In this document: piece by piece, positions 10,558 through 45,872 of the stretch
How the letters are laid out: the number at the start of each line of letters is the position of its first letter
Position numbering within the stretch: the stretch's first letter is position 1
Assembly (NCBI RefSeq): GCF_038025025.1
Contig: NW_027117338.1
Span: forward strand, 1,550,001-1,614,000
DNA length: 64,000 nt
Direction: 5' to 3'
Origin: Phyllosticta citribraziliensis
Taxonomy: Eukaryota
Translations under genes and position numbers: made by a program
The notes under the pieces: model-generated
Databases searched by the model: none
What the model saw: the letters and a program-made list of their open reading frames with translations, nothing else
What the model was told of the DNA's origin: nothing

Positions 10558-11396
10558 ATGTGGAACGTGAGAGTGGCAATCGTACTCCTCGGCCTCCTGG
10601 CGAGGTCAAGTGTCGCGGATGATGACAACGTATTTACAAATCCAACCGGCCCCGGACCGTCGGGAAACTTCGCTACAAACCCAGAGTGGAAGCCTGGTTC
10701 TGTTCAGCGAATTTCTTGGAAAACCACCCTCGACGCCTATGAGATAGCACTGTTCCATCAGAAAAGCAAATCTGGGTCCGGTGATCAGGTCCGAGTAGTC
10801 CACAGTGAGTTTTTAAAGACCTAGGGCTTTCAACGCTGACAAATCTCCCAGCAATAGACAGCAATGGCTCTGGCGACCAGTCTTTCGATTGGACAGTCGA
10901 CACATATGGAACAAGTACAACTTCGTCCTCTGCGTTCTATTTCTCGGTCGATTCTGGAAGCTCGGACGGGTTCACCTCGCATTACTTCAACGTCACCGGC
11001 GGGGCAAGCACTACAACCAGAAGAACTACGTCAGCAAGTCCGAGCCCAACAACTTCCAGTATCGCAGCTCCTCGGAAGACAACGACCACCACCTCCGCGC
11101 ATCATGCAGGCAAGACAGCAGCGGCGGCAGCTCCAAAACCCAAATCTAATCCAAAGCCGAAGAAGTCAAAGAGCAAGTCAGCGCCGAGTTCCAGTCCCCG
11201 CACTCTTGGACTTTCAATTGGCCTCGGATTGGGAGCCTCCATTCTTGTTATAGGGGGCTTCTATGCGTTCTACGCGATCAAGGAATCGGGACCTATCCAG
11301 CGCCGGCGGCAGCTGGCGGAAGACAAGAAAAACGCCGTTCCAGTGTGGTGTCCAGATGAGCAGGTTTTCAAGTACTCCGTGGGCTCAGCTTGCTGA
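10558..11396 (+). CDS. Signal peptide + small extracellular domain + S/T-rich stalk + single TM protein (Mid2-like architecture)
   Basis: Exon 1 MWNVRVAIVLLGLLARSSVADDDNVFTNP...; intron gtgagt..cag (~10805-10851); exon 2 ...FTSHYFNVTGG, T/S-rich, TM LGLSIGLGLGASILVIGGFYAFYAI, stop at 11394-11396. Confidence 0.75.
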
Positions 11397-11440
11397 CCAG
11401 AAGAGCGGACCTGGTCTTGCATCGCCAGTGGGAGAGCCAG

Positions 11441-11657
11441 CACAGTGAGTGTCGAAAGAAAAGGGACATCGTTCACTGCTATTCTTACGCTTAGGTCGCA
11501 TTCATTCACTACTGTAGTTGCACTCAGGGAGCGTTCGTTCACTACTGTTGTTGCACTCAGGGAGCGTTCCTGTACTGCGCTATATTTGCGCTAAGGGAGC
11601 AGCTGTTCATTCCTGTAGCCAGACCCAGGGAGTTTCTTTCTTCCGACACCTACCGAG
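11441..11657 (+). mobile_element. MITE-like element copy A (CACAGTG TIR, ~4.5 x 33-bp internal units)
   Basis: Starts cacagtgagtgtcgaaag and ends ttccgacacctaccgag; units at 11489, 11522, 11555, 11590; shares gccagacccaggg with other copies. Confidence 0.8.
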
Positions 11658-11742
11658 GCACGTCAAGTCTCCTTGTATTCAACCACAAAACACGTCTTCA
11701 ATCTACATTCTACAATATTGCCAAGTCTTCCAAACTCTCTAC

Positions 11743-13645
11743 TTATGCCCTTCTGGCAAGTTCATGCTCCTCCGCTCCCACCGGAATGACCTCCTCAACT
11801 GGACCCTTGACATCAGAAATATCCTCAGGCAAGCTACCCAACGCGCGCTCACCAAACAACAAATCAATCTCCTCGAGCGACAACGTCTTTGTCTCCTTGA
11901 ACCAGAACAGAATGGTCGGAAACGTGACGCAAACGTTCCAGCAAATAAAGACAAAGTAAAACTTCCACCCAATGTGTCCCAGGCCCTGAGGAGAGACCTG
12001 ATTCCATATGGTTGCCACCAGCCAATTGCCGATGCCTGTCGCAAATGCACTGCCTCGCGCCCGGATTTGCATTGGCATGATTTCGGAGGCGTAGACCCAG
12101 CTAATACTGCCAAAGGAAAGCGAGAACATCTGCCACTGTTAGTGAGTGTCCACTACTTGGAAAGATGACGAATAGCTTACTATTGTTACTACGAAGTAGA
12201 AGAAGACTCCAGCAATAGAGAGCCCCCTACTGTGCGCGTCGGTGTTCTGAGAGTTGACGATTGCCTCGCAAACAAGGGCCAGCGTTATGCCGACGGTGCC
12301 GAAGAGAAGGGGCTGTCCAATGTCAGTCTGTGATAGTCCCCAAAAGAAGGGTAAGCTTGCCTTTTTCCTCCCTACTCGGTCCAAAAATAATGTGATGAAG
12401 ATGAAGTCTGTTTCAAGGTCAGTCTTCCTCTGTAGAAATTCGGAATTTTGCGCTAACTCGTTATAGGGCCGACGCAGTTGTAGATGCCGGTCACGAGGAG
12501 ATTGGTATCGCCCGTGATGCCCAAGCTCTCGTACATAATTGTTTGATAATAATTTATGACGTTTATTCTATTATTAATCAGCAGCTGCGGAGTGTGTGAG
12601 GTAAGCTCATCATACCCTGTGAATTGCGTAAAGACTTGGACTCTGTTTTGGTCAGTCTCTTGGTAACCATTCCAACAGACAGCAAAGAGTACTCACAAAG
12701 TAGCGTGCATGAGCCGGGTTCTCCACTGAGGAACAGTAAACATGACACGCCAGCCCCTGATTTCCAAACGTCAGTTCCAAGCCATATTCGGGGATCCACC
12801 TTCACTCACGGAGCGGTAATTGCCTTCTCAGCGGCCACGGTGATTCTGATCTCGCGAAACTCCTGTTGAATCCAGTCGTCATTCTCCCCGTTGTAATGCA
12901 ACTTGCGCAACACTCGTAGCGCCTCGTCTTCGCGGTCGTGCTCAACCAGGTGTCTAGGGGACTCGGGGAAGAACATGATGCCGCAAATCAAAATCACACA
13001 CGGCAGAGCCTGGAACGCCAGCGGAAATCTCCAGGAAAAAGCACTCGTCTTTGGCACCTTGGACGAGCCATATCCGACCCAGGTCGACACGATGTAACCG
13101 ACGCCGATCATTTGCTGCGCCAACCCGACGATGAAGCCGCGATGCTTCGGGTGCGCACACTCGGCCTGGTACACGGGGACGCTCATGGAGAGCAAACCTA
13201 CAGCCCATCCGGCGAAAATGCGGCCTACAAGGACCATAGCGAGGTTCTGCGCTGCGCTTTGCAGGATGGAGCCGACAAGTGCGATGGCTGCTCCGATCAG
13301 GATGGTCAGACGTCTGCCCAACCTATCCATGGTGAATCCACCCATGAGACTGCCAAAGACGGCGCCGCCTGAAAAGGTCGAATTGATGGCGCCGATGGTG
13401 GGCGAAGTTTTCGTCGTGTTGAAGAATTTCAAAAAGTGCGGCGACTGAATGACGTCGGTCATGACTCTGGTTCCCGTGAGGATTTGGCCATTTTCGGGAT
13501 TTTTCTTTCTGTCTTACCCGCTATCATATCCGAACAGGAACGACCTGGAAAGATTCAGTCTGTCATTCCGGTCAACGACGCCCTTCTGGACCACTTACCC
13601 AGTGGCCGCAAAGCACGCCAAGGTGATGTTGAACCACAGCACCAT
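11743..13645 (-). CDS. MFS sugar porter (multi-exon)
   Basis: Spliced N-terminus MVLWFNITLACFAATGSFLFGYDSGVMTDV; DRLGRR, PVYQAECA, WRFPLAFQ, PESPR, DRVGR, WVYASEIMP, KETK..SLEEID motifs. Confidence 0.92.
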
Positions 13646-14147
13646 ATCTGCAAACACTGAAAGACAGAGACTGCAAGATGCTTCGTATGATCCCCAAACG
13701 AGACCGGGCGATTCTTGCTACTAGAAGGCAGTATTGAAAGCTCATAATCAAAGGCCCTGGCCATTCTGTCGTCGCGCATTTTATCCGGTCGTCGCCACGG
13801 TTAGCGACTCCAACATTTCCCCATCCAGCACATCGGTAGCCACAATCCCTGGGGCAAATCAACAGCACAGCATACCCATCATGCCACTGCGGCCGTCCAC
13901 TCAGTCCTCAGTCTCGCGCTCCGTCAGAGTCTCGGCGCATCCCTTCGACCTCTTCCCCGCATTCCGCCTCAGCCTCTACCCCAGGCCAACGCCTCCCGGC
14001 ACGTGCGCATAAATATCCACCAATGGCAACATTGGCGCAGCTCTGCTCTCGTGGCTCCGGAGTTGCACAGAACGACGGTCATCCGACAGGTCGAGGGTGG
14101 AAAGACACCGCGAATTTACGCGAGCAGCGTGTATACGGGTTGCTTTT

Positions 14148-14154
14148 GGCTAAA
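14148..14154 (+). promoter_or_regulatory. Putative XlnR/Xyr1 site (GGCTAAA) in the transporter/GH3 divergent promoter
   Basis: Exact match to the XlnR consensus; a short motif that could be chance. Confidence 0.4.
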
Positions 14155-14353
14155 TATTCAAGCCATTCGTGTGCATGCGAAGGCTTGCGTGCGGGCTTGC
14201 CAGTTCTGGGAATGCGCATCGCGGCAGAAGACCGTAGACTTGCAGCGACGTCACTCTGTTTGTACCTTTTATAACGGCGGCGATTTCTGGATCTCCGAGG
14301 CTGTCGTCCCAATTTACGGTTACGTCCTGGGAGCATTCAAAGCGAGGCTCAAA

Positions 14354-16948
14354 ATGCTCCGACAGACCGTCATACTCACTGCCGTAGCGCTGGCATTGGA
14401 TCCACTTGGAACAACCAGTTGCCATGCGCTCCGCAGTACATCGAACGCGACGGCGCCTCTCTACAAAGACCCGTCGGCGAGTATTGACGACCGCGTGTCG
14501 GATTTGCTGTCGCGGATGACGCTGCAGGACAAGGTAGGGCAGCTGATGCAAGGCGATATCACAAACTTCATCAATTCGACGACAAACGCGTTCAACTTCA
14601 GCGGCCTCGTCGACAACATGGAGTGGAAGGCGGGCCAGCTCTGGACGGGGTACCCTGTGCCGCAACGGTGGATTGCGGATGCGGTGAAGAGAGCGCAGGA
14701 TTATCTGGCTGAGAATACGACGTTGGGAATCCCCACAATCGTAAGAGTCTTGCTGCTCCTGTCTTGGGTTGACCTTTGCTAAATCAATCACTTCGACCCG
14801 CACAGGCACAAAACGAAGCCATACACGGAGTTGCGTACTTCAATGCCACCATATTCAATTCGCCAATCGGTTACGCCAGCTCCTTCGACACAGAGCTGGT
14901 GGCGCAAATGGCCGACATCATCGCCACTGAATCGCTCGCGCTCGGCATTACGCAAGTCTTTGCCCCAGTAGTCGACCTAGCGCGCGAGCTGCGCTTCGGC
15001 CGTGTCGAAGAGACATTTGGCGAGGACCCCTTCCTGGCCGGGGAAATTGGGTACCACTACGTAAAGGCGCTGCAGGCGCGCAACGTCAGCGCTGTTGTTA
15101 AACATTTTGCGGGCTTCAGTGCACCCGAGCAGGGTCTCAATTTGGCTCCTGTCCACGGCGGCGAGAGGGAGCTGCGCACGACATGGTTGCCCCCTTTCCA
15201 TCGCACGGTCATCGATGGGGACGCGTGGTCTGTCATGTCTGCGTACCATTCGTATGATGGTATTCCTGCTGTGGCCGATTATCATACTCTGACAGAAGTG
15301 AGCCTTCCCCCTGGAAAGTGCGTAGAGTTGAAAGCGCGAATTCTTATCTTGAGAGCAGATCCTACGAAACGAGTGGGGCTACGAATATTTTGTTATGTCC
15401 GACGCTGGCGGTACTGACCGGCTTTGCACTGCTTTCAAAATGTGCCAGGCCAGTCCGATTGACTCGGAAGCTGTCACAACATTGGCTCTTCCGGCTGGTA
15501 ATGACGTCGAAATGGGGTGCGTGACTCGAATCCAATATATTGATGCAGCAGGCTGACATTGACATCAATCAGAGGCGGCTCCTTCAACTTCAAAAAGATA
15601 CCCGAGCTAGTCGCCGCTGGAAAGCTAGACTTGTCCGTCGTCGACACGGCCGTGGCCAGGACACTGCGGACAAAGTTCAAAATGGGCTTGTTTGAGAACC
15701 CGAACCCTGCGGCACCGGAAAATCAAACGTCGTCTTTGATTCATACCAAAGAGGCCGTCGGTCTCGCGAGGAAGCTGGATGCCGAATCGATCGTGTTATT
15801 GGAGAACAGAGATGCAGTGCTACCGTTGAAAAAGTCGGCCAGTGTTGCTTTGATTGGGCCGTTCGCGGACGTCATGAACGTGAGTTCCTTGTCTATTTCC
15901 TCTCAACACTCTCCGCTGACGTTCAATATCTTAGTACGGAGACTACGTGGTCGAAGATTCAAAATATCGTGGGATTACACCCCTTGCCGGTCTTCGCGAA
16001 GCTTCCACTGGCAGTATCAGCTACGCCCTCGGCTGCCAACCATGGTCGAACGACGAATCAAGCATCCCCGAAGCGGTGTCCGCAGCCGCAGCAGCCGATG
16101 CAGCCGTCGTGATAGTCGGCACCTGGTCCCGTGACCAAACCGAGCTCTGGCAAGGCCTCAATGCAACAACCGGTGAGCACGTCGACGTATCTTCTCTGTC
16201 TCTCGTCGGAGCCCAAGCTGCGCTCGTCCGCGCAATCATCGCCACCGGCAAGCCCACGATCGTCGTCTTCTCATCTGGCAAGCCCGTCAGCGAGCCCTGG
16301 ATATCAGAGCATGCATCGGCGCTGGTCCAGCAGTTCTACCCGTCGGAGCAAGGGGGTCACGCACTCGCTGACGTGCTGTACGGCGCGCACAACCCCAGCG
16401 GCCGCCTGCCTGTCGGCATACCGCGCAGCGTCGGAACGCTCCCCATCTTCTACGACTACCTCAACTCGGGCCGCGGCGACGACCCGGATGCCGGCGCTGT
16501 TAACGACAACGGCACGCTCACGTTTGGCCATCAGTACGTCCTTGATAGCCCGGCGCCGCTGTACCCCTTTGGCCACGGGCTGTCGTACGCGCGCTTTGAG
16601 TACTCCAACGTCTCGCTCTCGTCGACGACGGCCGGCCCTGATGACGCGATTACCGCCTCCATTTCCATCACTAACGCGGCAGACGTCGACGGCTTCGACG
16701 TTCCGCAGCTGTACGTCGCGGATCAGCTTGCTTCTGTTGTCGTGCCCAATCTGGCGCTGCGTGGTTTCCAAAAAGTGTGGGTGCCGGCGGGCGAGACAGT
16801 CGACGTGCAGTTTGAGTTGAAGGTTGAGCAGTTGGGGCTGTGGGATCAGCGCATGAGGTATGTGGTTGAACCGGGCGATTTCACCGTGTGGGTGGGCGCG
16901 TCGAGCGCGGATTTGAGGGGGAATGCGACTTTGACGGTGGTTGGTTGA
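14354..16948 (+). CDS. Secreted glycoside hydrolase family 3 (beta-glucosidase/xylosidase), multi-exon
   Basis: Signal peptide; APVVDLARELRFGRVEETFGEDP, VKHFAG, VMSAYHSYDG, FVMSDAGG (nucleophile Asp), ESIVLLEN, PSGRLP, LYPFGHGLSY and a C-terminal Fn3-like domain. Confidence 0.95.
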
Positions 16949-17165
16949 AATGGGCGCGCAAGCAGGCGGATGCGCATGCCCTACCCTCTGGCTCCCTGTT
17001 TGAAATGGTAGCGACGCGTAGAAGACGCGATCAGGTTCGTGCAGCTACTGGAGGCGTGTAGCTTTCCATTCTGAGGGTAAATAGTCCAAACGCTTCTAGT
17101 ATCGATTTGATTTAGAGCTTCAAAGATACCTTTTTTGGCTGCCGGCAAGGTCCGGAAGCTGCCGG

Positions 17166-17383
17166 CACAGTGGATGGCGAAAGTAAAGAGACTCCCCAAA
17201 GCTGGTTGCAGCGATGAACAGTTGCTTCCTGATCGCAACTACAGTAGTGAGTGAATGCTCCCTGAACATAACCATAGCAGCAGATAACTGATGCTTAAAC
17301 GCAACTGTAGCAGCGTGCGAATGCTCCTTAAGTGCACTCAAATAGCCAGGAGACCTGTCTCTTTTATTTCGGCACCCTCTGTG
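17166..17383 (-). mobile_element. MITE-like element copy B (4 units) with a 4-bp TSD CCGG
   Basis: ccgg|cacagtggatggcgaaag ... tttcggcaccctctgtg|ccgg; four degenerate 33-bp units. Confidence 0.85.
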
Positions 17384-17453
17384 CCGGCATGAAACATCTT
17401 GAGGAAATACTCGACGCTTTTTGACTCGACACTACTCACCGACCATTGACCCC

Positions 17454-18977
17454 TTACTGCATTCTACCTTTCAAGGCCAACGACGCGTCAAAGACACGCT
17501 TGTACCCTCCAAAGTCGTTCTCCTCGTCGCCGCCAACATCTGGCTCGCCCAGTTTCCGGGCCCACTCGGTGAGGCCGATGGGATAACTAAAAGGACACTC
17601 AGTCAGCTTGAGCTTCAAAAGGCGCGTTGCGTGAAATTGTCTCACCAGCTCTCGACCAACACAGCGACATGGTCGTCCGGGATCTTCTCAGGTTTGATTT
17701 CCTTGTTCATCGAATGCTCGATGACGGGCGCCGACATGCCATGGGTGCTCATGCCATTGTGCAGCATGCACATGCCGATCAGCTCCTCGGGCATGGGCGA
17801 CGTGTCAAAGCCGCCGGAGATGACGGCCGCGAATTCAGACATGGTGTTGCGGTGGAAGTACGGCACGTGCAGCGTGTCCTCCATGACGAGCCAGCGCGGA
17901 CCAATGTAGATGAAGTCGACGGCCGGGTGGTCGGGCTTGTCCGACGGGCACGTCAGCACCGTGAAGATGGAGGGGTCCTGATGGTCGTACAACGTCGAGC
18001 CCATGGTCATGAACTTGCCCAGGTCGTACTTGAATGGGTAGTACGTCCCGTGCCAGGCCACTGCATTGAACGCGCTGCCCTTGAGCGACGCGCGGCTGAC
18101 TTTGCCGGCCATCTTGACGAGCAGCGTCGTCACCGCGTCCGTGTCTGTGAATGCTGCGCATGGAATCTCAAAGTCTCGCAGATTCGCCAGCCCCAGTGAT
18201 CCGATAATGCCCAGTTCCGGCACGTCGAAGTGTCCCGAGAATGTCTCAATCACGTAGCCCCTGGTCTGCCCGCTGGGGAGTGTCACACGGAAGCGGATTC
18301 CCCGCGGTACAACGCAGATCTCGCGGGGCCGCACACGCAACATGCCAAGCTCTGTCTGAATGTCAAGGGCTCCAATTTGGGGCACTGTTGCGAGGTGTCA
18401 GCTGAAAAGGTGGGAAGTTCGACAAATACTTTGTTCTCACCAATCAGCCAGTCGCCATCGGCGCTGTAGAATGCAGTCTGCTCGTCCATGTCGACCCCGC
18501 AGCTGAATGAATAGTACGCCACACCGTTTTTGATAGTTGCATCTCCCGCTCCGCCAATCAGCCTCAGTCCGTCAATGAAGTTGCAGTCCGTCTCAATCTT
18601 GAACGGCTTCCATGAAAGCTGGTCGGGAAGGAAGCTCAGGTCGGTGTGGAAGTTTTGATTCAGGGGATGATCGGGCACCTGCGTCCAGCTTGACTGTGCG
18701 GCCGATGGGAGGACTCGCCACATGAACGTTTGCTTGTTGACGGCACGCTTGGCTGTGAAGGACGACCCACTGATTCGCTCTGGATAGAGGCCGAGATGGT
18801 GCTTCTGGGGGAGATTCTGCGCTTTAGGGAGAGCCCCTGCAATGGCTTCGGATCTGATTGATTCAGTTGCAGTCTTGGGGGAATAGGTCTTGGTAGTTGG
18901 GGGACTTACTCATGGTACGAATTCAGGCCTGTGGCGTACCGGTTACGGTCCTCGATTGCGAACTTCGACGAAGGCAT
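17454..18977 (-). CDS. Homogentisate 1,2-dioxygenase family protein (divergent hmgA paralogue), multi-exon
   Basis: SEAIAGALPKAQN.PQK, FYSADGDWLI, VPRGIRF, VAWHGTYYPFKYDL, DHQDPSIFTVLT, PYFHRNTMSEF, LHNGMSTHG (Fe-ligand His/Glu/His retained). Confidence 0.9.
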
Positions 18978-19699
18978 TGTGGAAAATAGCTTTTTCGTTT
19001 ACCGATGAAGGGTCGAGATGAGAAAGGCTACCAAGACTGCAAAAACGACACGGGCGGGCGTTTCTTTTTTATCCAAATAGCAATCGATGATAGACCTGCA
19101 TATCCAAGGCGAGAAAAATTGCATCACAAAGGCTGTGGAGCCCGTGGACTTGACGTGCGGGGCAGACGTGAGAAAGTGTCGCGGGGAACACGCACTACGT
19201 GGGTCTTTCGAAGACAACTGGCACAACGGACGATCAGCCTCACGTAATGCCCGCAGGGTAAGCTGATCTTGGAGATGATTGAAACCTGCCTAAGACACGT
19301 GTTTAGCTGTTCAATGAGCCTTAGCGAACTCCAGAGGTTCCGTTGAAGCATTCAATCGGCGGCGATTGGCACGGGAAAGTCGATCACCCGCATGGTTGGG
19401 TGGAGATTCGTTCTGCCAATGTACCTGGTGGTGTGATGCTATTCTGATTCGATGCTGCGATGCATGAGCTGGAGACTGTGTCCGGACATACATAAGCGCG
19501 CGGGATGGAGACTCTGAATCCCGGGTACCTTTCGCCTTGCCATAAAGAGTCGTTGTGCACTATCAATTGGGCAACAGTTGTAGGATCGGGAGACGAGCTC
19601 AAAGAGGCTTCACTAGCCGTCGTGATGATCTGCGTTGCATAGAAAGCTGCATAAATCCGCCGTGAAACCGGAATTCGCAACTTGGGGTCCGATGAGAAC

Positions 19700-19846
19700 C
19701 ACAAAGTGGACGTCAAAAGAAATGAGACTCCCTGAATCTGGCTGTTGCAATGAACAACTGCTTCCTAGGCGCAGCTACAGCAGTGTATAAATGCTCCCTA
19801 GACGCACTCACATTGCCAGGTCTCGGTTCTTTCGATACCTACTGTG
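19700..19846 (-). mobile_element. MITE-like element copy C (2 units)
   Basis: cacaaagtggacgtcaaaagaaatgagac ... ttctttcgatacctactgtg; units end gcttcctaggc and gctccctagac. Confidence 0.75.
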
Positions 19847-20258
19847 GCCGTAACACGGTTCTCAGTCACCCCATTGGGGCCCTGCGGTGGAACCCTATGC
19901 ATAATGAATGTCCAAGTCAGGCCTTCTCTCTTGACATACCCCATTTCATGCATCTGTGAATATCAGACACGAACATGTGAAGAGGATTTGTGAAACTCAC
20001 TATTCTTTTGCATCGGAAGACTTCCAATTGATCGAGCTCTCGCCACTTTCGCTAGTCTCTGCTGGACTTCCGGGCTCCTTCAATGTGGAAGCGTTCATGC
20101 TCCCGACGCCCAAGACGAGCCGCACAATCCAGCTGCAAAGGAAGGGGCGTCGATTGAATTTGCTCGAATAGAAGAGCAGAAGACCTGAAGGAGTGGTGGG
20201 AAGCCTGCTGAGCGGGTCAAACGCAGCGTTTGAAAGGCAGATGAGCCTTTTGACAGGT

Positions 20259-23200
20259 TCAGCGTCCACCTGCGTTCGATTCGGCCCACCACAGCGCTCT
20301 CTTCTTCACCAGGTAATTGTACCGATCCCCCAGGACTTCCCGCAAGGGAACCACGTCGTTCAAAGACTTCATCTGATCGTCGAATTTCTGGTGTCGCCTT
20401 TTCAGCCTATCCGCCTCATGGTGTTCGGAATCTGGGAGCTTTTCAATGCAAAGAGTAGCAGGATTGCTCCTCGTATGATCGTCCCGCATGTACAAGGCCT
20501 GCCGACCTGCCAGCTTTTCCCTGAGATGCCTGCGGGCAGAATGGATCAACTTGAGTTTTGTTCCGGTCTTGTTGGGATCGACAAGAAACCTGTCAGTGGC
20601 TTTGCAGAAGCATCCTCCACAAGGGCAACCTAGCGGTGGGCGACTCCAGTTCGGTTCTTTGTATTCTCTCCCGACTCCCTGCATGAGATAGCATTCGATG
20701 ACATTACTGAACAGCGGTCGAATCCTTTCGACCCCGAGCGACTCCCAACGGCCACCCACATGGCGAAGGAAGTTCATCATTGGTTGCGGATAGAAATCGA
20801 CGTTTGTCCGTTTCGCTTCTGATTGAAACTTGTTGAATAGCTCGTCGACAAGCTTTTCGTCATGAAGCTTCTCGTGCAGGAAGTCGAACATGCAGTTGAT
20901 CAAAGTCGGGCTGACAGCAGGCGTTACCTCCCAAGGGTCTGGAGTTGGCGATTTCGACGGGAAAATCATCGATCTTTTTCTGCCCGCTAAGGGCTCGGGT
21001 TTTCTGGGTTTTTGTTTCGCAGCGCGCAGGTCGAGATGCTGAATACACAGGGCAGCAATGTGTCTGTAAATCTGACTGGCCGTCTCTGCTGGAAATCGAT
21101 GCGGGATCAACTCGACTTGTTCTACAATGCCTCCGAGGAAGCTCATAGCAAACTCGGTATTTGAAATGTTGCGCTCAACGACATCTGTCACACTTGAAGC
21201 GAATCAGCCTTGTCATTCTGCCAGTTCCATGGATCGGTACCGTCACTCACCTGGGCAAGGCACCTTTAGTGTCATCTGAAAGGTAGAGAATTTCAGCCAG
21301 AACCCTTCCATCTTCAGAGTCGACATCTGAAGACCGACTGATGGCTTCGCTGAGTCTTCCTGAAGCCCAAGAACAGAATCCCGACTCTTGGCATTTTCTC
21401 TTTCTCTCTTCAAAGCCAGCCTCGTGTGGTCGAAGAATCCCACGGCATAACTTGAAGACTTGATGAATGGACGGATGCAGAGACACGAAATGAGACAGTC
21501 TATCAAGAGTCAGTGCTTGGAGACGCAAAGTCTGGGCTACAGCTTACGAATGCTCCAGGAACGCAAACCCCCTTTCAAAGAGCCAGCCAGACAATGCTCC
21601 CAAAGCGAAGCTGGGCAGGACACCATGGGATAAGCCTTCGGATACGATTTCGAAAATCTTTGGGTTGTCGCATTTAACAGCCGCTCGCAGCATGGTGTTG
21701 ATGTCGGTTTCGCCCCTAAAGTCTTCCCAATCTATCAAGTACTTTTGCGGCCTCTGCTGAAGCATGTAAATACGGCTGAAGTTTTCCAGTGCTTCTCTGA
21801 CAATGGGTCTGTCAGGCTGTTTTTGCAGCTCGTTAAGTAAGAATCCGACGGTTTCCTCGAGGTTGAATAGGTAGGTGTGGTCCTGGTCGTATTTCCAAGA
21901 TTGGTCATGAGCCAACGTCGACGTTAGGAATTTTGGAACTTGCTCCCACGGCATGAATACGATGGCCTTTGATGATTAGTGGAGTGCCAGGAATGGTCTC
22001 AGAAGTATACTCACGGTGTGTCGGTACCAGTGGGTTGCATCGCAGCCTTCGTTGCCCGTATATGGAGTGAATTCAGCATCGTCAGGATCACCCGCGCTGA
22101 GACTACCACGTTTCAACAAAGTATCGGGTTCCTCATCAGGGCCAAGCCAAACGTTGCCCGCAACTTCTTTGCCCGCAAGGTCGACTACTCGGGTCAACCT
22201 AATTTCTGTTTCGCAGATGTCGATGATTCTATGGTACCTCCTTTTTCGTGCCCCGTTGCGATTTCTGACAGGCTCATCATCGGCACCTCCATAACGCATT
22301 TCGGCGATGTTCGCAAGGAAGACGCAAAATCCAGGGGCTTCGCAATGGTCCTGGAGAGCTCGAGCTTGCGCAAGGTCTTTGCCTTTCAATTTATCGAGTC
22401 CCAAACTCGACTGGGTGTACTTGTGCTCTAGGACGTAGACAAACCACTGCTTCCTCCAGAAGTCTTCCCTGTTGCAAGCCTGTCGCCAACTTCCCAGGGT
22501 CCTTTTGAGCAGCGGATATTCATGACGAAGACTGGACATTGACGCGGAGGCCGGTCGAATCAAATTATAGGTCAGGACCCATCGATGACCGGCTGTTATT
22601 TCCGTGATTTCATGCTGGACGTCGGAGTACCTGTGCGTTATTTAGTAGAGAACTAGAATTGATGCTGGAGGATACTGACCAGAAGAGACAAGACTTGTAG
22701 CATTCCGACGTTCTGAAGATTCTTTTCTGGTCACCAAGCTGAGCTATGACATCACCACCTCTATGAGGCGCTGGTAAGCAAATGACAAGGGTGCCAAACA
22801 TGTCGCGCTCCTTCTCAGAACTGTTGTCTGTTAGCGAGCTGTGTGGTTGAAGTATATGGCCACTATCCTACTCTTGATGGGGTTTAAAATGGGCGCCTTT
22901 TCCATAAAGCAGCATCTTGTACAAATGAGCTTCGATTCGAAGCTCTGGATCAATTCCTAGCACCATCTGGACCGTTTTCAAAGTTTTGTCCATAAAGGTT
23001 GGCCAGAAGGGGTTGGTGATTAGAAAATCTGCTGCGTCCATTTCCCACGAGCTTCGGACGGCTGGATCAACAATTGTTTGGGAGCCTTTGCCGAAAGGCG
23101 ATGGTCGGCATGCGTTCGTCAATTTCTGTACATCCTCGGGCACAAGCGGAGTGTTGATGATTCCAACATTTTTGACTTCGATTTTCGGATCCACGAAGTC

Positions 23201-23372
23201 GGGGTCAACATCCAAAGAGGTAAACGACGCAAAGGTGCCGGCGCAATCAATTCCGTCGAGCTCAGCGGCAAGCTCTCCACGGAGAGTCGGGTAGTCTGAT
23301 GGGTCTTCTGAGACGAGGCGAAGGGATCCATCTGAGCGCGGTGAAGAAAGAGCAGCAAGGTCCTCGTCCATG
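20259..23372 (-). CDS. 2OG-Fe(II) oxygenase-domain protein with a long C-terminal extension, ~6 exons
   Basis: SPFGKGSQTIVDPAVRSSWE, LYKMLLYGKGAHFKPH-Q-D (spliced), MFGTLVICLPAPHRGG, later YVLEHKYT and YTGNEG motifs; start codon uncertain. Confidence 0.85.
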
Positions 23373-23592
23373 ATGCCGCCGAGTTCAGCGATTGGTGTTG
23401 CAGTTGGAAAACGGGCGTTGAGGATGGACCAATGGAAATTATTCGGCTTCGACGCGTCCGCGGAAACGCGTGAAGCAGTCGACACCCGTGATTTGGCGCT
23501 AGTCCACTCTGAGTTAGAGCCCGGCCGCAGCGAGACGTCAACAGCGAACGTCGCGTCTCAACCTCTCCTCACCCTCTCCGCTATCTAGTTCG

Positions 23593-23746
23593 CATCGGTG
23601 GGTGTATAAAGATGTGTGACACCCTGGGTCTGGCTGCAGCAGCGCATGGATGCTTTCTAAGCGTGACTGTAGCAGTGAATGGATGCTCCCTAAGCGCATT
23701 CATGTTGCCGGGAAGTCTCATTTCTTTCCATTCGACACCCACTGTG
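23593..23746 (-). mobile_element. MITE-like element copy D (2 units)
   Basis: Shares gacaccctgggtctggctgcagcagcgcatg with the reverse complement of copy E; ends ttcgacacccactgtg. Confidence 0.85.
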
Positions 23747-24004: not shown

Positions 24005-25026
24005 TCAATGTGATCCAAGCTCGACCTTCGGCTCATTCGCAGGCATCTCGTAAATTTCGCGACCGCGAAGCTCCGAGATAGCAGGAGAAAACATGGGCTC
24101 CTCCGGAGAGACAATGAAGGGAGATATGATGGGCGATTCTGGCCTTGGGCAGCTCTTCTCTTCCGGAATTCGCGTTGGCGCAGTGTCCGATTCTATGCTG
24201 GCCCTCGGTTTGGCCGCCGAGGACTTGCGTTTTCTGTCAACGGCGACTCCAATCGCGGCTCCTGCGACAAGCAGGATGGGAATTCCGAGGCCGAGCCCCA
24301 TGCCGAGCCTGAAGCTCAACTGCTTCGATTCCGTGGTGGATGTGTCTGTTCCATTGGCAATTCCCGTTGCCGTTGGTGCGCTACTAGAAAGAGTATGGAG
24401 GGCCGCAGTCGTTGGCTCCGAAGCCCCATCGTCGATACTGCTTGTGGCCGTGCTGAGCGTCGTTCCAGTCGGGAAGCTTGCGATACTGTCAAGAGACGTG
24501 CTGGGTGCAGTAGCTGGTGACGTCAGAGAAGACTCGGGAGACGTGCTTGTGGTCGTCGGAGAAGTCGAGGTCGAACCATCGGTGATGTTAAAGAAGTGGG
24601 ATGCGAACATTGGCTCTGAAGCATTGTGTGTGTTGATCCAGAAGCAAAAAATTGGCGAGCGTCCCAGGGTGTCGTCATCCACGTCCACTATCCACTGCTT
24701 TTTGCCGTCTCCTGCGGCAGCATCATAAGCTAGGTATGTCAGTCCTCGACAAAGAAAATGCCTTGGTGCGTGGGGGACGCACAAGCTATCCGAGAGATCG
24801 TTTTGACAATGAGAGTGTCAGGATTTAGCTGCCACAACTCGAGGTCGTATGTGTCATAGGTTGTCGACCATGTTATCAGCATGGAATCTCCAGTAAAGAC
24901 GAGTGGGTTGGTGGAATAGTTGTAAGTGAAGGCTTCGGGTCCGGGCTGGCTGAAGTAATTCTCATCATCGGCGAACGCGTTGCGCGCCAGTGCGACGAGA
25001 ATCAAGCAGAGGTAGGCGAGCCACAT
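24005..25026 (-). CDS. Signal peptide + S/T-rich + single TM protein, paralogue of 10558..11396
   Basis: MWLAYLCLILVALARNAFADDENYFSQP...YSTNP...ITWSTTYDTY; intron ~24732-24783; SHFFNITDG, S/T-rich, TM LGMGLGLGIPILLVAGAAIGVAV. Confidence 0.75.
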
Positions 25027-25709
25027 GGCTGCGGCAAGTCGTCGGTCGTAGACACACAGGCGAATGGTGATGGTGGTCGCAGACTTAGGCCGAAGGATGG
25101 AGAAAACAATGAGGCGAAAACCCAGGCGATTGAGCAAACGCCCAGCGGTGGCGGTCAAGTTTGCTCCGGCGGAAAAGGTGCCTTCCTTCCCACGGCACAA
25201 CCTCTTGCGCGGGCGCCGACTCGAATTTCGAATTCCCAGCGCAGCTCCACAACCGGCTATCCGCCCCACTCTCTTCGCGACAGGTCACCCGTCACCGCAT
25301 CATGGAACCTCTCGATCCTGGCGAAACGAAGTTGTAACTTCAAAGTATTAACATCTGCCTCCGTAGTAGCTTCGCGCCCTGGACGGGAGAGGTGGGTCAA
25401 TCCCGTCACCCCTGGTTCTCGCCAAGCCACATGAACTTCCTGAAATGGTTAGCTCTCAGGAGCAAAGTCCACTCCTCGACGAAATCACAGCCAAAAGGTA
25501 CCGCAGAGATGAAACAACCACTGATCTGTTTCCAATGCCTCGAAAGGAAGACGGTTCACGAGGGACTGCCATGCTGTCAGCATCCACAAGCCTAAACAGT
25601 GAAATTGTAGAGAAACTGCAAATCAATTTTCTATAGTCTACTTGTGCCGTGTCGAGCTGTGGGGCCGCCACTATCCAACGGTCCAATGGCCCTTCTAGTC
25701 TGGTGATAT

Positions 25710-27326
25710 CTAAACCTGAACGTGCTGACCGTCGCCTACGGGACGGGACTCCGGAGTGGGCTTCTGCTGCACGGGGACAACCCTCTCACCACGGTGCTTC
25801 TTGACGATGCGCTCAATCGAGTCCATGCCCAGCTTGAGAGTCTCCATGCGAGGGCCATATGACAAACGGACGAAGTGGTGGCAAGGCGAGTCAAAGAGGT
25901 CACGACGCTTGGCCGGGTTGAGGTCGAAGAAGATGCCAGGCACGACGATGACCTTCTCCTTCAGACACTCGTTGAAGAAGTTGAGACCATCGTTGATGGT
26001 CTCGGGGAGAGCAGAGAGGTCCAGCCAGAGGTAGAAGGTGGAGTTGGGGACGTCTTCATCCGGGATGCGGAAGCCCATGGTGCGAAGGCGACCAATGACA
26101 TAGTCACGCTTCATCCTGAAATGAGTCTGCAGAGCGCGCATCTCGTTTTGCACCTTGTTGGGCTCGAGCATGGCAATGGCCGCCTCCTGGAAGGGAACGT
26201 TGGTACCACCGTCGAGGTAAGAGCCACAAGAGCCAATAGCCTTGATGAACTCCTTGGGACCAACGATCCAGGCCACACGCCAGCCGGGAAGACGGAAGCG
26301 CTTGGTCAAACCGTCGATGATCAGGACGTCGTCCTCGTCAACGTCGACGACGTTGTCGGCCGCAGAGATGACAGTGCCATCGCAGTTGGTCGTGTAGTTG
26401 TAACCACCTGCGCGATTAATTAGACTCGTTCAGGAGAAGGGGCTTGCCCTACGCAGGACTACTCGGTCCAAGTGTGCCGTTTCGGGAATGCTCGGAGGGC
26501 GGTGAACTTACAATAGAACTCGTCCATGATCAGCGTCGCACGGTTACGGCAGATGTCCTGGATCTGCGCGAGCTCCGGGTTGGTAATGACCTGGCCAGTC
26601 GGGTTGCGAGGATTTGAGGTGAGAATGACCGAAGTTCCACGCGCGATTTCCTCTGCAATCTTCTCTGGGTGGATGTGGTAGCCGTCGTCATGGCTGAGAG
26701 GGATAGGAATAGAGGAAAAGTTCTTGAAGAGAGACAACATCTCGTTGTATGCCGTGTAGTCGGGAATGAAGAAGGAAAGGTAGCTGTTGCCCAGGACTGC
26801 AGCAATGCGGATGAGGCCTGCGCGTCCACCAGGAACAATGCAGACGTTTTCCCAGGTGTACTTGCTGCCCCTGTCCTTCCGGTGGTGTTCGTTGTAGAGG
26901 TTGGCGACGGCTTCGCGCAAAGGCCTGATACCGGCCGTGGGACCATATTCACGCCCAGTCAAGGAGATGTCGACGGTCTGGGGGCGCTCAAAGCAGCCTT
27001 CAATCTCGTCGTCGACTTCGGGAGCACCCTGACCCAGGTTGGCCCACGACGTGGGGTCTTCGAGGTAGCCATGCTCGTAAGCTCGCTCCGAGGTCCAGAC
27101 GACACCGGTGGAGGCGCGGGTGGCATCGAGTCCGGCGTGGGTCTTGTGGCCGGCGTGGGAGGCACGGAATTGACGATGGGCAATCGAGTTCGCCTCTGTG
27201 AGTCAATTAGAATTTCAAGACTTGGAGGGTGGGGTGGTGAAGGCTACCAGACTCGGTCTTGCTGGTGGAGAAGCGACGGTCACGGCCAAAAGCCGTGGAG
27301 CTCAGTCTGCGGTGTGCGGGAGCCAT
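25710..27326 (-). CDS. PLP-dependent aminotransferase class I/II, 3 exons
   Basis: WANLGQGAPE, YGPTAGIRPLREAVA, SNPRNPTG, IMDEFY, DGLTKRFRLPGWRVAW (PLP lysine), VRLSY. Confidence 0.9.
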
Positions 27327-27942: not shown

Positions 27943-27972
27943 AAAAAAAAAAAAAAAAAAAAAGAAAAAAAA
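27943..27972. repeat. poly(A) tract (~30 nt, one G interruption) in the divergent aminotransferase/MPG1 intergenic region
   Basis: Read directly. Confidence 0.9.
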
Positions 27973-40154: not shown

Positions 40155-40481
40155 TTGAGGAAGGGTATATAAGTCATGAAAAGCTCCAGTCGTTCAATCC
40201 TTGACGCCGTGTGTCTAATAAGACAATCTCCATCATGCAAAGTGAAAAAGAACCGCCGGGTCGTGCCAAAAGTTCGCGCAGAGTGTAGCAGCCACGCACT
40301 CAAATCTGGGCTGAGGGACGTTAGCAACTGGTGTCGAAATCCAGGACGAGATTCGCCTCTTACCGCATCGCCGCTTGTCTTCAGGCGTACTCGCTGAAAA
40401 GTGCGAGTCGCGGCTGGGTACGTGACATTCCTTGCCACGTATGGCACTGCAGAATGGGGCTGCACCTGGCGCGCTGATGGC

Positions 40482-42195
40482 TCAAAGGTGATACTCAAAG
40501 TCGAGGGCTCTGTCGCCCGTCTTGACCTTGCGATTGTCTTCCATCTCACCACGAGCAATCTTCTGCTTCTCTTCGTTGCATTTCCTGATGTACAGCCACT
40601 TGGCAAGGATGAGAACCTGGCTGACGCAAATAGCACCGAGAGAGAACCTGTCGTTCTATTAGTGTTGTCAAAAGAAGAGTACCGTGCGAGTCTTACCCAT
40701 TGCCGAGCCGATAAGGAGCAGTACGATAGATCTGGCCAGCGACCACTCCTGCGGTGTTTCCAATAGTCTGCTGGAACCCAATGGCTGTTGCACGCCTGTA
40801 GTGTGGAGCCACCTGATTTTGTTAATCACACGTTCTCTAGATGCTGCTGTGGGCGACATACATTTACGTTGAGCCAGGTCAGGTTCAATCCGGGCCCGTT
40901 GTACACAGCAATAGCCGTGAGAAAGCAGCCGAAAAATTTGACACCGTCCGATACATCGGTAAGTAAGAGCACATAGCCGACGATGCCGAACATGTTCGCA
41001 AATGCCACAAACTGCGAACGCATTAGCAATTGCTTGGGTCTGCAATCAGGAGCGTTCGTACCGGTCCACGGATTCTCAGCCTATCCGAGATGAAGGCCAG
41101 AGCTAGGAAAGCAAGACCACCAACAACATAGACCGGGATGCACAGATATTGCGACTGAAGAGTGTTGTATCCCATGCCTTTAATGATTGAAGGCAAAAAG
41201 GTGCTGAAGCCGTAAAGGAGAATGTCCTGGCAGAACTGAATGCATCCACTGTGATTCAGATTAGCTCTGAACACCCGAGAAGGCTTTTCAAGCAGCGATT
41301 TTGGAGCTTCTCATACCTGACGTAGACTTTGGGATCCACCAAGGCAATTTTGACTTCTTCCCATGAGAACTCCTCACTGCCCATGTATGCCTGTCGCTGG
41401 ACTGCCCTGATTTGCATCATTTCCTTCTCTTCCGGGCTGAGAAAGTACGCGTTGGATGGATCATTTGGTAGCCCAAACCATATGAGAGCGGCGATGACGA
41501 TGCTGAACAGGCCCTCAATGATGTAGACCCACTTCCAGCCAGCAAGACCGGAAACGCCATCCATGTGCAAAATGCCATACGCGAGCAAACTTCCAAAGGC
41601 GCCAGCGATTGCAGTGCAGACAAACAGATAGGCCACACGCTTTGCCTGTTCCTCTCTTCGGTATACCATGGTCAGGTAAAGGTTCAGACCTGGAAAGAGG
41701 CCGCCCTCGCAAGCGCCGAGGACAAGTCTTGTCGCATAAAGACCCCCAATGTTGGTGATGAAGCCGGAAAAAATGGTGACGAGCGACCAAACAACGCAGA
41801 GACTGGTCATGAGGATGCGAGGAGTGAGCTTCTTGAGTAGAACAGCCCAGGGAGTCTCGAAGGCCACATAAGTAGCGTAGAATATCGAGACGGCGGTAGA
41901 AAACTGTTCAGAAGTGGCACCGATATCCTCCGGCATGCCGGCGGTCTTGACATTTCCTATGTTTGAGCGATCCAGAAAGCAGCTCTGCGCGCTGGTCAGT
42001 CTTGTTGTGTTGTGCCATGAGAATTTGACTTACCAGGTACACTAGCATTATGATTGGAGTAAATGCCAGGTCAAGCTTTGCCAAAAGCTTAGTCTCCTTG
42101 ACGGGATCCAGGTGCAAAACCGCCTCTCCGGATTCCGTATCACTCCCACCATCTTGATGTGGGCGTTTGGCGTCCATATTGACAGAGTCGGCCAT
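40482..42195 (-). CDS. MFS anion:cation symporter family permease (Tna1/Dal5-like), multi-exon
   Basis: KLDL, FLDRSNIGN, RLVLGACEGGLFPG, Y.REEQAKR, GWKWVYIIEG, SDRLRIRG; spliced end ...RALDFEYHL* at 40482. Confidence 0.92.
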
Positions 42196-42785
42196 GGCGT
42201 GGTTTCAGAGGTCGAGAGAGTGGTCTCGATTCTGTCGCGGGTACTTGAAAAGCACTAAAGACATGGTGTTTTGCAGGTGATTTTATCTGCATCGTCCCAT
42301 ACGATACCAGGTTAGGTCGCTGGCCTATCGCGGGGCTTGGCCTGGGATTGGTTCAGATTGCTGATCGGATTGCAAACCCGTGCAGAAGCGAGAGATAAGC
42401 CATCGTCTGTCTTTCTTTCGCATCATCCCACCGACTCATCAGATACATGGCGAGGACGGACATGACGCCGATGAAAGCCTGGTGCGAGGGATGGCAAATG
42501 CAGTGGCTGACAGGTCTGACGTCGAGAGGTGTCGTGAGGAGGGGAAGATGGCGGCCGGCCGGCGATGAGGCGCGTCCGTGCCACTTGATCGGATGCAAGC
42601 GAACGGCAACGCTGACTCCACCTTCCATCCAACACTCAAGTCTCAGCCTTGTCGCTGAATCACCCTGATCGGATGTGCTATCCAGTGGCTGCCACGGTGC
42701 AACTTTGTTCAGTTGTTCCTTGTCGGTAGAGTCCACGTTGCCCCCGCCAGCGGATCCACCTGCACCCCAGAGTGACCCGTCGATC

Positions 42786-45638
42786 ATGTCCTCCGTAAAG
42801 CAGTCTTCGCGGAATCGCAAGACCCCAAGAGTCAACGATCCATACAGACGAACCTCCTTGGCGTGAGATCACTCTATCGCGCGTACGATTGATACAAAAC
42901 TTCGTCTGACAAAGCTGGACCAGTTGCGAAGTCTGTCGAAAGCGGAAGACAAAGTGCACGGGCGAATTGCCTTGCTGCAGGTATTGCAAGCTGCACAATC
43001 TCGAGGCCAAGTGTCACTATCTTGAGCAAGAGCAAAAGGTTGCTGTGCCAAAATCATATCTTCTGGAGCTCAAGGCTCGGCTAAAAGCCTACGAATGCGA
43101 GTCTTCTGTCTGGTCAAACGAACTTGTTGACTGACTCTGTGGTAGCTGGCGCTGTTCCAACAAACACACCATTGGCGGAACCATCTCCAACTTCTGTAGA
43201 TGATCCAGAAAACGTAGAGTCCGAGGCTTTTGAGGAAAACCCCTTGACCGAGGGCCTTGCGCATTTGACCATCACTCCCTCAGGTCAACGACGTAAGATC
43301 TGCCATCCAGTCCAGAATCCTTTTCGGCTAACTTGAGAAGACTACTTGGGCCACTCATCGGCGACGAGCTGGGCTCTCCGACTGCGCAACTTTGTCGAAA
43401 ATGACACGCATCTTGACCAGGACCTCAAAATCGAGGTCCAATATCCAACATACAACCCGGCGGCATGGCCCAAACGTCGTCCGTCACTCACAGATCAAAC
43501 GAGGCTACCGCCATATGACTTTTGCCGTCATCTATACTATGCCCAATATCAGGTTTCAATATTCTGAGCCAAGTTCAGGAATGCCTCCTAACTGACTTGC
43601 AGTACATAGGCACGATCTTTTCATTTGTTCCTCCACGAGTATTCGAAGAAAGGCTGCAAAAGGCCCATGACGAGGCCCTGGATCTATCAGACCGTGAATC
43701 ATGCCTGGAGTATTGCCAGGTCTTGTTGATGCTCGCATACGGTCAGCTTTACAGGTGCGCTCGCTTCGCCGAAGAAAAATTATGTTTGTCTGACCTACTT
43801 CGACAGCGTCAACCAATGGAATAGTCCAAACGGACCGCCTGGATTTGACTTCTTTATGCAAGCTCTCGAGTTTTTGCCAGATATCCATGAGGAAGGGTCC
43901 GTGCTGTTCGTCGAAGTGCTTTCCCTTGTCGGCTACTTCATGCAGAACCTACACCGTCGAGATGCTGCATTTCTATACGTTGGTTCCTTCCACGCCTCTC
44001 TGATTCGAGAGGACTGACGAGTAATCAGATTGGCTTGGCCCTGAGAATGGCCATATCCCTTGGGCTCCATCAGGAGATGGCAGATCCAGACCTTGATGAA
44101 GAAACCAGAGAGCATAGACGGCGTCTTTGGTGGTCCGTCTACTCCATGGATAGGTAGGCTTCCTGGTCAACACCGATTGGCAGTACTGACGGATGAAAGA
44201 ATCCTATGTGCCAAATCAGGTAATCCAATCACGATTCTTGACGAAGACATAGGTGTTTTGCCCGCGTCGCGGCTTCCAGATGAACCTGAGATATGCCCCG
44301 CGACTGTACTATCTCATTACACGCAACTATCTCGAATCACTGGCCGGATTATGAACGGTAAGCGCTTCCAATCCAGTTCGATGACACGTATCGACCAAGT
44401 GGTGGAGTTTTCCGTCGAATCTCTGCGTAGTTCTTCGCTTCCACCATCTGACCGAACTAGACATCTACCGCAGAACCGGACAGAGCGTCAAAACAGGCCC
44501 CAGCCTCGTTGCTTCGGTCAGTAGCATCATGGACGATCTCAACAGCTGGCGGCGTGATCTCCCCGCCAGCCTTCAATTCGATCGCTCTCGACTCAACGCC
44601 GGTATCAAGCGCGAGACTGTTTCCGTCTTCCTCCACTTTTACCAGTGCGTCAACATGACGGCACGCCCGCTGCTCTTCCGAATTGTCCAGCGGCGGATTG
44701 CTTCTGAAACAAAAGAGACGGAGTGGCAAACTGGACTGTCTCCCATGACGATCCAAGTCATCAAGGCATGCGTCGCCGCCGCAAGAGACAGCACCGCGAT
44801 TATGCAGGCGGCCGCGCGGCAGAACCAAGTTGGTGAGTCTACGACTTTGCAATTGCTTGCCTGATCGGTCGACCGAGTTCTAACTGAAGCCGCAGCCAAC
44901 TTTGGCTGGATGGACAGTGAGCACTTGTTTAGTGCGGCGATCGTGCTCGTCATGATCAACCTCGCCTTTCCGCGCAACTCGCGCGATGCGCAGGCCATGG
45001 ACACGGCGCTCGAGGTCTTGCGCGGCATGGCAGAGAAGGGTAACAGCTACATCCGCGCACGCCACGAGCTTCTCATCAAGCTTCGGAGCGTGACTTCGGC
45101 GTCCGCAAGCAACCCACATGCGTCATCTTCTAGTGTCCCCGTCGCGTCGAACAGTGGCCTTGCTTTTACTTCTTCGTCTCCTCCACTTTACGACGTTAGC
45201 AGTAGCGCGACCACCAATTCAGCTCGACACGGGAATATTGCTCGCACTTCTCCGTCTGCACCTCCTTCCTACTCTGCTGCTTCCCCTATTCAAATGGCCG
45301 CACCTCAGAACCGAGCTCGACAAGACTCGTCGGCTTTCTCCCCAAACTTTGCCAGCTTTTCATCTTTCCCTGCGTCATCTTTCGGTGCCACGGCTGCGAA
45401 CACAGGGGCAGGGGCTGGGCCAACACAAGGAGCATCAGACGCGGGGCTGTGGGAGGACAGCTACGGGACCTTTGACGCAGGAATGAACGGCATGGATTGG
45501 GACAGTTTCTTGATGACTGGTGTCGAAGGAACAGCCACTGGTGATTGGCCAGTGAACGACGTGGAGCAGCAGCACCAGCAAAGGCGAGACGAGGGCTGGG
45601 CGGAAGTATTTGACGAGGATGGGGAGCGATGGGTCTGA
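42786..45638 (+). CDS. Zn(II)2Cys6 transcription factor with a fungal-specific TF domain, multi-exon
   Basis: Spliced ACEVCRKRKTKCTGELPCCRYCKLHNLEAKC; YLGHSSATSW; GLALRMAISLGLHQE...RRRLWWSVYSMD middle homology region. Confidence 0.92.
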
Positions 45639-45658
45639 GTAGCATCGGGGAGCAGCGG

Positions 45659-45872
45659 CACAGTGAGTGTCGAAAGAAATAAGACTTCCTGGCAATATAA
45701 ATGCGCTTAGAGAGCATTCATTCACTACTACAGCTATAATTAAGGAGTAACAATCTGCTATTACAGTCACGCTTAGGGAGCATCCATTCACTACTATAGT
45801 CACGCTTAGGAAGCATTCATGCGCTGCTGCAGCCAGACCCAGGGTGTCTCATTTATTTCTCCACCCACTGTG
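45659..45872 (+). mobile_element. MITE-like element copy E (4 x 33-bp units) with a 4-bp TSD GCGG
   Basis: gcgg|cacagtgagtgtcgaaagaaataagac ... gtctcatttatttctccacccactgtg|gcgg; units at 45705, 45738, 45771, 45804. Confidence 0.9.

Follow-up and report, generated by a model that had tools for sequence, protein, structure and literature searches.

Why do the copies of a short, non-coding repeat lie just past the stop codons of unrelated genes, and why do all of them share the strand of those genes? The question is raised by a 64-kb stretch of the genome of Phyllosticta citribraziliensis (contig NW_027117338.1, positions 1,550,001 to 1,614,000), referred to here in its whole length as the window, which carries five clear copies of one miniature inverted-repeat transposable element (MITE). 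An earlier reading of the letters alone, called here the original prediction, had placed all of them downstream of a stop codon and co-oriented with the nearest gene, and had offered two explanations: either insertion is targeted to gene 3' ends, or the element has been exapted as an RNA structure of the 3' untranslated region (UTR). Our analysis shows that these elements are a non-autonomous DNA transposon family of the MITE type with a variable array of 33-nt units, and that their closeness to stop codons is probably real, whereas the strand rule is suggestive only and stands unproven. On balance, we favour an old MITE family kept by the survival of harmless insertions over a new regulatory device or mechanism.

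A MITE family with a variable tandem array

The copies were located by blastn of the copies against the window and by an nhmmer profile built from the five of them, which finds each with E-values from 7e-64 to 3e-36. They are listed here together with a marginal relic, and with the programs that detected them, including Tandem Repeats Finder (TRF).

11441-11657, + strand: copy A, 217 nt, about 4 units of 33 nt (blastn, nhmmer, TRF)
17166-17383, - strand: copy B, 218 nt (blastn, nhmmer)
19702-19846, - strand: copy C, 145 nt, about 2 units (blastn, nhmmer)
23593-23746, - strand: copy D, 154 nt, about 2 units (blastn, nhmmer, TRF)
45659-45872, + strand: copy E, 214 nt, about 3.5 units (blastn, nhmmer, TRF)
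6177-6320, - strand: relic, about 3 degenerate 33-nt units without inverted ends (nhmmer E 0.009, marginal)

The clear copies are framed by 27-nt terminal inverted repeats with the consensus CACAGTGGGTGTCGAAAGAAATGAGAC, beginning CACAGTG, whose arms are recognisable in all five, and the interior of each consists of two to four tandem 33-nt units, the number varying from copy to copy. The period of 33 was detected by TRF in three of them (A, D and E) and also by a repeat search of the window. This interior is asymmetric and sets the strand of the element, full-length matches of the nhmmer profile falling on a single strand and the opposite strand giving end-only matches with E above 0.002. The two arms of one copy differ from each other at 8 positions in A, 5 in B, 8 in C and 5 in E, and copy D has indels in both arms.

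Inverted ends, a small size (145-218 nt), the absence of coding capacity (no Pfam-positive open frame overlaps any copy) and dispersion as a multi-copy family are features of MITEs that the copies display. No autonomous partner with the same ends is present in the 64-kb window, and a limited literature search found no paper on this family, the combination of Phyllosticta and 'miniature inverted-repeat' giving nothing relevant.

Position of the copies relative to genes

The position of each copy was measured from the stop codon of the co-oriented gene upstream of it. These stop codons, in the order of copies A to E, are the following.

11394..11396, + strand: stop codon of a spliced gene, two open frames joined in phase by the intron 10805-10851
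17454..17456, - strand: stop codon of homogentisate dioxygenase, the frame of the last exon checked across the intron 17587-17645
20259..20261, - strand: stop codon of a long 2-oxoglutarate (2OG)-like gene, an RNA contig (X6 record 21) being contiguous over 20223-21192
24005..24007, - strand: stop codon of a Ser/Thr-rich single-pass membrane-protein gene, with the intron 24730-24782
45636..45638, + strand: stop codon of a Zn2Cys6 transcription-factor gene (Zn_clus, Fungal_trans)

The copies lie 44 (A), 70 (B), 412 (C), 258 (D) and 20 bp (E) past these stops, in agreement with the approximate distances given by the original prediction (45, 70, 410, 260 and 20 bp), and on the checked gene map five out of five are co-oriented with the gene to which the stop belongs, as it had stated. 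Its claim that no copy occupies a divergent promoter also holds: none of the five was found in a divergent spacer, A and B lying between convergent genes, and C, D and E between tandem ones. Copy A sits in a convergent spacer of 346 bp, 44 bp past the stop of the + gene and 85 bp from the stop of a sugar transporter on the - strand. Copy B is placed between a GH3 glycosidase gene (+) and the homogentisate dioxygenase gene (-), 217 bp past the stop of the former and 70 bp past that of the latter. Without the element, these two spacers would measure 129 and 287 bp.

The three remaining sites had been considered fully informative, which is correct in that C, D and E are in tandem spacers, but C and D turn out to be as close, or closer, to the start of the next gene. 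Copy D is 221 bp from the ATG of the next gene (2OG-like, - strand) as against 258 bp from the stop upstream. Copy C, in turn, is about 240 bp from the furthest cover (about 19456-19466) of an RNA contig carrying a CT..GC-bounded joint (19217/19290) upstream of the dioxygenase coding exons, which we take to be the leader of the dioxygenase gene. The genes following C and D are both on the - strand, like the copies themselves. Since D is nearer to the next ATG than to the stop, and C is near this putative leader, two of the three informative copies are no less promoter-proximal than 3'-proximal. Copy E, 20 bp past the stop of the transcription-factor gene, is followed after about 490-530 bp by the next + gene (AhpC-TSA_2-like).

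The relic was said to follow the COQ3-like gene on the - strand, and this could not be upheld. It occupies the middle of a 1432-bp convergent spacer, 609 bp from the stop of the COQ3-like gene and 679 bp from that of the convergent + gene, and being nearly equidistant from both stops it is uninformative as to which gene precedes it.

How far chance accounts for position and strand

The null consisted of uniform intergenic points on an approximate, hand-made map of 23 genes with 21.2 kb of spacer, of which 22% is convergent, 41% tandem and 37% divergent, and 200,000 random draws of five insertion points were made from it. All the probabilities obtained in this way are post hoc, with n=5, thresholds set after the data had been seen and a null without selection. 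Under this null, a geometric-mean distance to the adjacent stop as short as the one observed is rare (p=0.0024, 200,000 draws), and at least three of the five copies within 70 bp of a stop are seldom drawn (p=0.0029). That all five adjoin a stop and are co-oriented has p=0.0033, and jointly with distance 8.5e-5. Placement at the level of spacer class is not significant, the absence of copies from divergent spacers having p=0.10. The orientation of five out of five has p=0.031, and that of the three tandem sites alone p=0.125. The comparison of position and strand with an intergenic null, which the original prediction had proposed genome-wide, was thus made for the window, where it supports the nearness of three of the five copies to stops and leaves orientation, with five copies, at the modest value given above.

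We consider that the co-orientation is most likely the chance result of a small sample; a real strand bias driven by selection is possible but doubtful. One form that such a bias could take is an orientation-dependent retention at mRNA 3' ends, in which only sense copies are tolerated or favoured and the asymmetric 33-nt array acts in a strand-specific way. For example, the sense array could aid or spare 3'-end formation while the antisense one is harmful, and the strand rule would then extend genome-wide. Even though the agreement of all five copies with the gene of the nearest stop (p=0.031) speaks for this explanation, only three sites are unambiguous, with the p-value of 0.125 that corresponds to them, and the inverted ends are symmetric, so that the internal array alone could act. 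From this and from the evidence of transcripts and motifs presented below, we regard it as unlikely.

Transcription through the copies

The comparison with sequencing runs and their contigs spanned 20 kb of the window, copy E lying outside it. No run is recorded as RNA, and X1 and X2 (from two studies of organism A) as well as X6 (organism C) were treated as such solely because their contigs skip short segments; the 15 spliced joints listed are all absent from X4 (organism B), which behaves as DNA. Among the joints listed (15 of 65), 12 are of the GT..AG type and 2 of the GC..AG type, and 1 corresponds to a variation of repeat number inside copy C.

Two of the RNA runs cross the convergent copies. 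Without a break over 10852-12129, X1 record 2 and X2 record 7 lead from the last exon of the + gene through its stop, copy A and the transporter stop into a coding exon of the transporter, and X1 record 4 and X2 record 9 (16158-17586) extend from the last exon of the GH3 gene through copy B into the dioxygenase, whose intron has been removed. As these spliced contigs are unbroken over A and B, both copies are transcribed and unspliced. A contig over two genes is not proof of a single transcript, and the contigs are unstranded, so that the carrier of A and of B within its convergent pair is undefined. The contig of the membrane-protein gene (X1 record 5) has depth as far as 23767 and, judged by its length, should end within D at about 23674. 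The expectation that the copies lie in transcribed 3' regions is therefore supported for A and B, through which contigs pass, and for D, which one contig reaches by this estimate. At A and B, not all transcripts stop short of the element.

No RNA cover was found just past C (19467-19632; X1 and X2) or past D (23509-23511; X1, X2 and X6), where the DNA run continues. These gaps could mean that transcripts end at the copies, but contigs break at repeats and loose ends were found inside both copies, and hence the gaps are counted neither way. At 19735, the depth of contigs with the base of the window is about 287, as against 260-280 for the contigs of the 2OG-like gene, which hints that RNA of this gene reaches C and is not counted either. 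As regards orientation-dependent retention, the presence of copies within transcribed 3' regions is in its favour, whereas the passage of contigs through A and B, so that not all transcripts end there, and the undefined carrier gene of the RNA over both copies weaken it.

Identity with introners was considered as well, but A and B do not behave as such: both are contiguous in two RNA runs, and no joint among the 15 of 65 listed ends at an element boundary.

RNA contigs also link adjacent genes over spacers of all three classes, convergent, divergent and tandem (8116-12129, 15935-18853 and 24783-25948), which indicates that neighbouring transcripts overlap or abut, and that most of the local spacer DNA is present in RNA.

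Folding of the copies and strand-specific signals

The second explanation of the original prediction was an exapted RNA element, in which the hairpin of the inverted ends and the 33-nt repeats would form a 3'-UTR structure, or a small-RNA precursor, co-regulating the genes that carry it. Some observations agree with it: every copy can still be folded end to end, with 16-24 pairs in the sense strand, copies are transcribed, and a related organism keeps B and C at the corresponding sites. The arms themselves point in the other direction. Their departures from the consensus sum to 9 in A, 8 in B, 8 in C and 5 in E (30 in total), as against 26 differences from arm to arm, and since both figures are about the same and compensatory changes are absent, the two arms of a copy have decayed independently. 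The z-scores of the folds against 100 mononucleotide shuffles are weak in sense (-0.5, -3.4, -1.8, -1.4 and -2.0 for copies A to E) and more negative in antisense in four of the five copies (-1.0, -3.1, -2.3, -4.3 and -5.1). Furthermore, the number of units ranges from about 2 to 4, Rfam yields no match over the whole window with E up to 1, and the neighbouring genes have no evident common function. There is no sign of selection on the hairpin, the exaptation that had been proposed was not borne out, and we hold it to be very improbable.

A search for sense-specific AATAAA-like, UGUA, splice donor and branch-site motifs found none that is consistent across the five copies, the branch-site motif being present in none of them. 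The only steady asymmetry is that of ATG triplets, whose numbers in sense and antisense are 0/4, 2/5, 1/3, 6/6 and 2/7 for copies A to E. The strands are thus not equivalent, the antisense being richer in ATG in four of the five copies, which speaks for orientation-dependent retention; that poly(A)-like, UGUA and splice motifs are not consistently specific to the sense strand is contrary to it. A stronger version, in which the MITE is kept genome-wide only in sense at mRNA ends, with the 33-nt array taking part in 3'-end formation or the hairpin in a small-RNA pathway, seems to us quite improbable. Were it true, a transposon would have distributed one common 3'-UTR module among fungal genes of metabolism and regulation that are otherwise unrelated.

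Ends, target site and insertion preference

Direct repeats at the flanks are retained in only two of the five copies, CCGG in B and GCGG in E. When the ends are read as CAGTG, each side of copy B shows an exact TGCCGGCA of 8 bp and copy E agrees at 5 of 8 positions, the full series of flanking 8-mers, counted by eye, being 8/8 for B, 5/8 for E, 4/8 for A, 3/8 for C and 2/8 for D. The hAT superfamily is characterised by target duplications of 8 bp and by short YARNG ends. TGCCGGCA is, in turn, a palindrome, and at B it might just as well prolong the inverted repeat. Eight of the ten ends have CA before CAGTG, and this speaks for a true end at CACAGTG and a 4-bp duplication. The superfamily could accordingly be one with a 4-bp duplication or, on the 8-bp reading, an hAT-like one. 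Over the five bases next to the element, all ten ends are rich in G and C, and six of them resemble GCCGG.

These features bear on the idea of an insertion preference, that is, a transposase favouring the nucleosome-poor 3' ends of genes or a GC-rich palindrome such as CCGG or TGCCGGCA that would be frequent at those ends. It would account for the three copies 20-70 bp past stops, two of which are in very short convergent spacers, and it is in line with the GC-rich outer bases, the GCCGG-like ends, the perfect TGCCGGCA on both sides of B and the GCGG on both sides of E. On the other hand, it predicts no strand bias, C and D are placed in the middle of their spacers, the target motif comes from two intact flanks out of five, no empty site was recovered, and in old copies such a preference is inseparable from selection after insertion. 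Taken as the main cause, it appears distinctly unlikely.

Three further observations concern the ends and their surroundings. TGCCGGCA is found three times around copy B (17138-17167 and 17384-17391), at both immediate flanks and again 12 nt past the right flank (TRF period 10), which may point to a palindrome preferred as target, to a footprint or to a local duplication of older date. Beyond the inverted repeat, the + copies A (11419-11440) and E (45643-45658) have similar left flanks, reading GCATCG...GGGAG with a 5-nt gap, and homology of more than about 5 nt beyond the ends is absent at the other eight ends; if this stretch is part of the element, A starts 22 bp and E 4 bp past the stop codons. 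Finally, the 5' splice site (10801-10818) of the real intron 10805-10851 reads CACAGTGAGT, the same as the first 10 nt of the element end in A and E, a coincidence that may be due to chance.

Age and spread of the family

The pairwise identity of the copies is 61-78%, with 365 transitions to 184 transversions. Organism B has contigs that bridge copies B (16900-17750) and C (19645-20625) at sites identical to those of the window, so these insertions predate the split of these organisms. Single positions of the element are overlapped by 10-15 distinct contigs of organism B (X4) and by 2-4 RNA contigs of organism A, and loose contig ends lead into other flanks. So many contigs, with loose ends leading elsewhere, indicate that the family is multi-copy in organism B too. 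The low identity, the flanking repeats kept in only two copies out of five and the sharing of B and C with organism B all establish the old age of the insertions.

Four of the five copies (window 11441-23746) fall within 12.3 kb, yet their mutual identity is no more than 61-69%. When metagenome contigs were scanned for the end motif of 18 letters, 16 loci were obtained, none of which has the element at a profile E <0.005; one is a 39-nt end-only match with E 0.008, and all 16 were judged to be chance matches.

Survival of harmless insertions as the probable explanation

The account that we favour would be as follows. Copies of the MITE, which entered this fungal genome, dense in genes, a long time ago, would have survived where an extra 150-220 bp is least harmful, namely past stop codons, in 3' UTRs and in short convergent spacers, to be then passively carried in the transcripts of their neighbours. 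Closeness to stop codons would be the outcome of such a survival filter, perhaps with a contribution from insertion into the open DNA of gene ends. Passive carriage is argued for by the RNA contigs, which run unspliced through A and B. The age of the copies, the lack of signs of selection on the hairpin and the non-significant placement by spacer class are in favour of this account too, as are the published cases of MITEs close to genes and within UTRs (PMC3227409).

Several points weigh against this account. Three of the five copies are 20-70 bp from a stop (p about 0.003 on the uniform null), and all five are co-oriented (p=0.031), with a joint nominal probability of about 1e-4. A view of position as pure chance is strained by these values, and a strand bias retains some probability. 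Two of the copies are in tiny convergent spacers (129 and 287 bp without the element), which are small targets for random insertion. A 3' filter is, moreover, not universal, the MITEs of Epichloe being enriched 5' and not 3' of genes (PMC3227409). The filter itself is something that we infer, behind an anatomy, positions, passage of RNA through A and B and an age that were all read from the data.

Genes around the copies

The window is gene-dense and has fungal features, such as short GT..AG introns and Zn2Cys6 and velvet domains. Names given by Pfam include a COQ3-like methyltransferase, a sugar transporter, the GH3 glycosidase, homogentisate dioxygenase and an aminotransferase, among others. 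The labels dioxygenase, COQ3 and transcription factor of the original prediction were thereby corroborated, as homogentisate dioxygenase, COQ3-like methyltransferase and Zn2Cys6 transcription factor (Zn_clus, Fungal_trans). Pfam has no family on the exons of the 2OG-like gene, of the + gene before A or of the membrane-protein gene. The + gene before A is truly spliced, with pieces of RNA contig beginning at 10852 and a joint of X6 at 10804/10855.

The long 2OG-like gene is multi-exon, from 20259 to about 23371, and owes its label to motifs read by eye alone, with no Pfam match. In-frame stops occur between adjacent open frames of this - strand gene (20259-23371), at 21976-21978 and 22868-22870; they may be inside short introns, or the model may comprise two genes. 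Two spliced joints, 19217-19290 and 12312-12361, are bounded by CT..GC and correspond to GC..AG introns on the - strand. Elsewhere in the window, the homopolymer runs C17...C5 (6488-6519) and G25 (50006-50038) form an inverted pair 43 kb apart, and the RNA contig of the COQ3-like gene, judged by its length, appears to end at the C17...C5 run.

Comparison with known systems

Introner-like elements occur in Dothideomycetes. Introners are described as small elements, some of them with inverted ends and target duplications, in transcribed regions (PMC9860276, PMC12130899). The present copies resemble them in lying inside transcribed regions and in having the same strand as the host gene. In A and E, the left end also contains GTGAGT, a consensus 5' splice site. 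Contrary to introners, the copies are unspliced in the contigs over A and B, lack a branch-site motif in all five cases and are located past stop codons instead of in coding exons.

MITEs near genes and in UTRs are described for fungi and plants in a study of Epichloe (PMC3227409), which cites Bureau and Wessler (1992, 1994) for the Tourist/Stowaway-type MITEs in UTRs of plants. The likeness consists in MITEs being carried in the 5' or 3' UTRs of ordinary genes. Some plant MITEs of the Tourist/Stowaway type supply poly(A) signals; in the family described here, poly(A)-like motifs are not consistently sense-specific. The same source names the mimp MITEs of Fusarium oxysporum (PMC3227409). Both these and the present elements represent fungal MITE families with a non-random placement with respect to genes. 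The mimp elements are associated with regions upstream of genes, whereas the family in the window is found on their 3' side.

The degenerate EFT-m MITEs of Epichloe festucae lie within 500 bp of a gene in 47% of cases, have often lost their target duplications and have dead parents (PMC3227409). They share with our copies the condition of decayed fungal MITEs near genes. However, more of them are within 500 bp of 5' than of 3' ends (PMC3227409), whereas in the window three of the five copies are at most 70 bp from stops and none is in a divergent spacer. Should both the 3' placement and the strand rule extend to the whole genome, the elements would represent a fungal family of DNA transposons that the 3' ends of mRNAs have shaped, or that has itself shaped these ends, in contrast with the enrichment of MITEs on the 5' side in Epichloe.

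The architecture appears to match that of tandem-repeat-containing MITEs, among them DTC84 from the clam Donax trunculus (PMC3879986). Both are small and non-autonomous, with a short tandem array of variable number framed by inverted ends; contrary to DTC84, the present element is fungal, has a 33-nt unit and an apparently low copy number, and no link to satellite DNA was seen. As it stands, the window documents a tandem-repeat MITE family riding in the 3' UTRs of a gene-dense ascomycete, which is useful when genes are annotated and when old insertions are to be marked.

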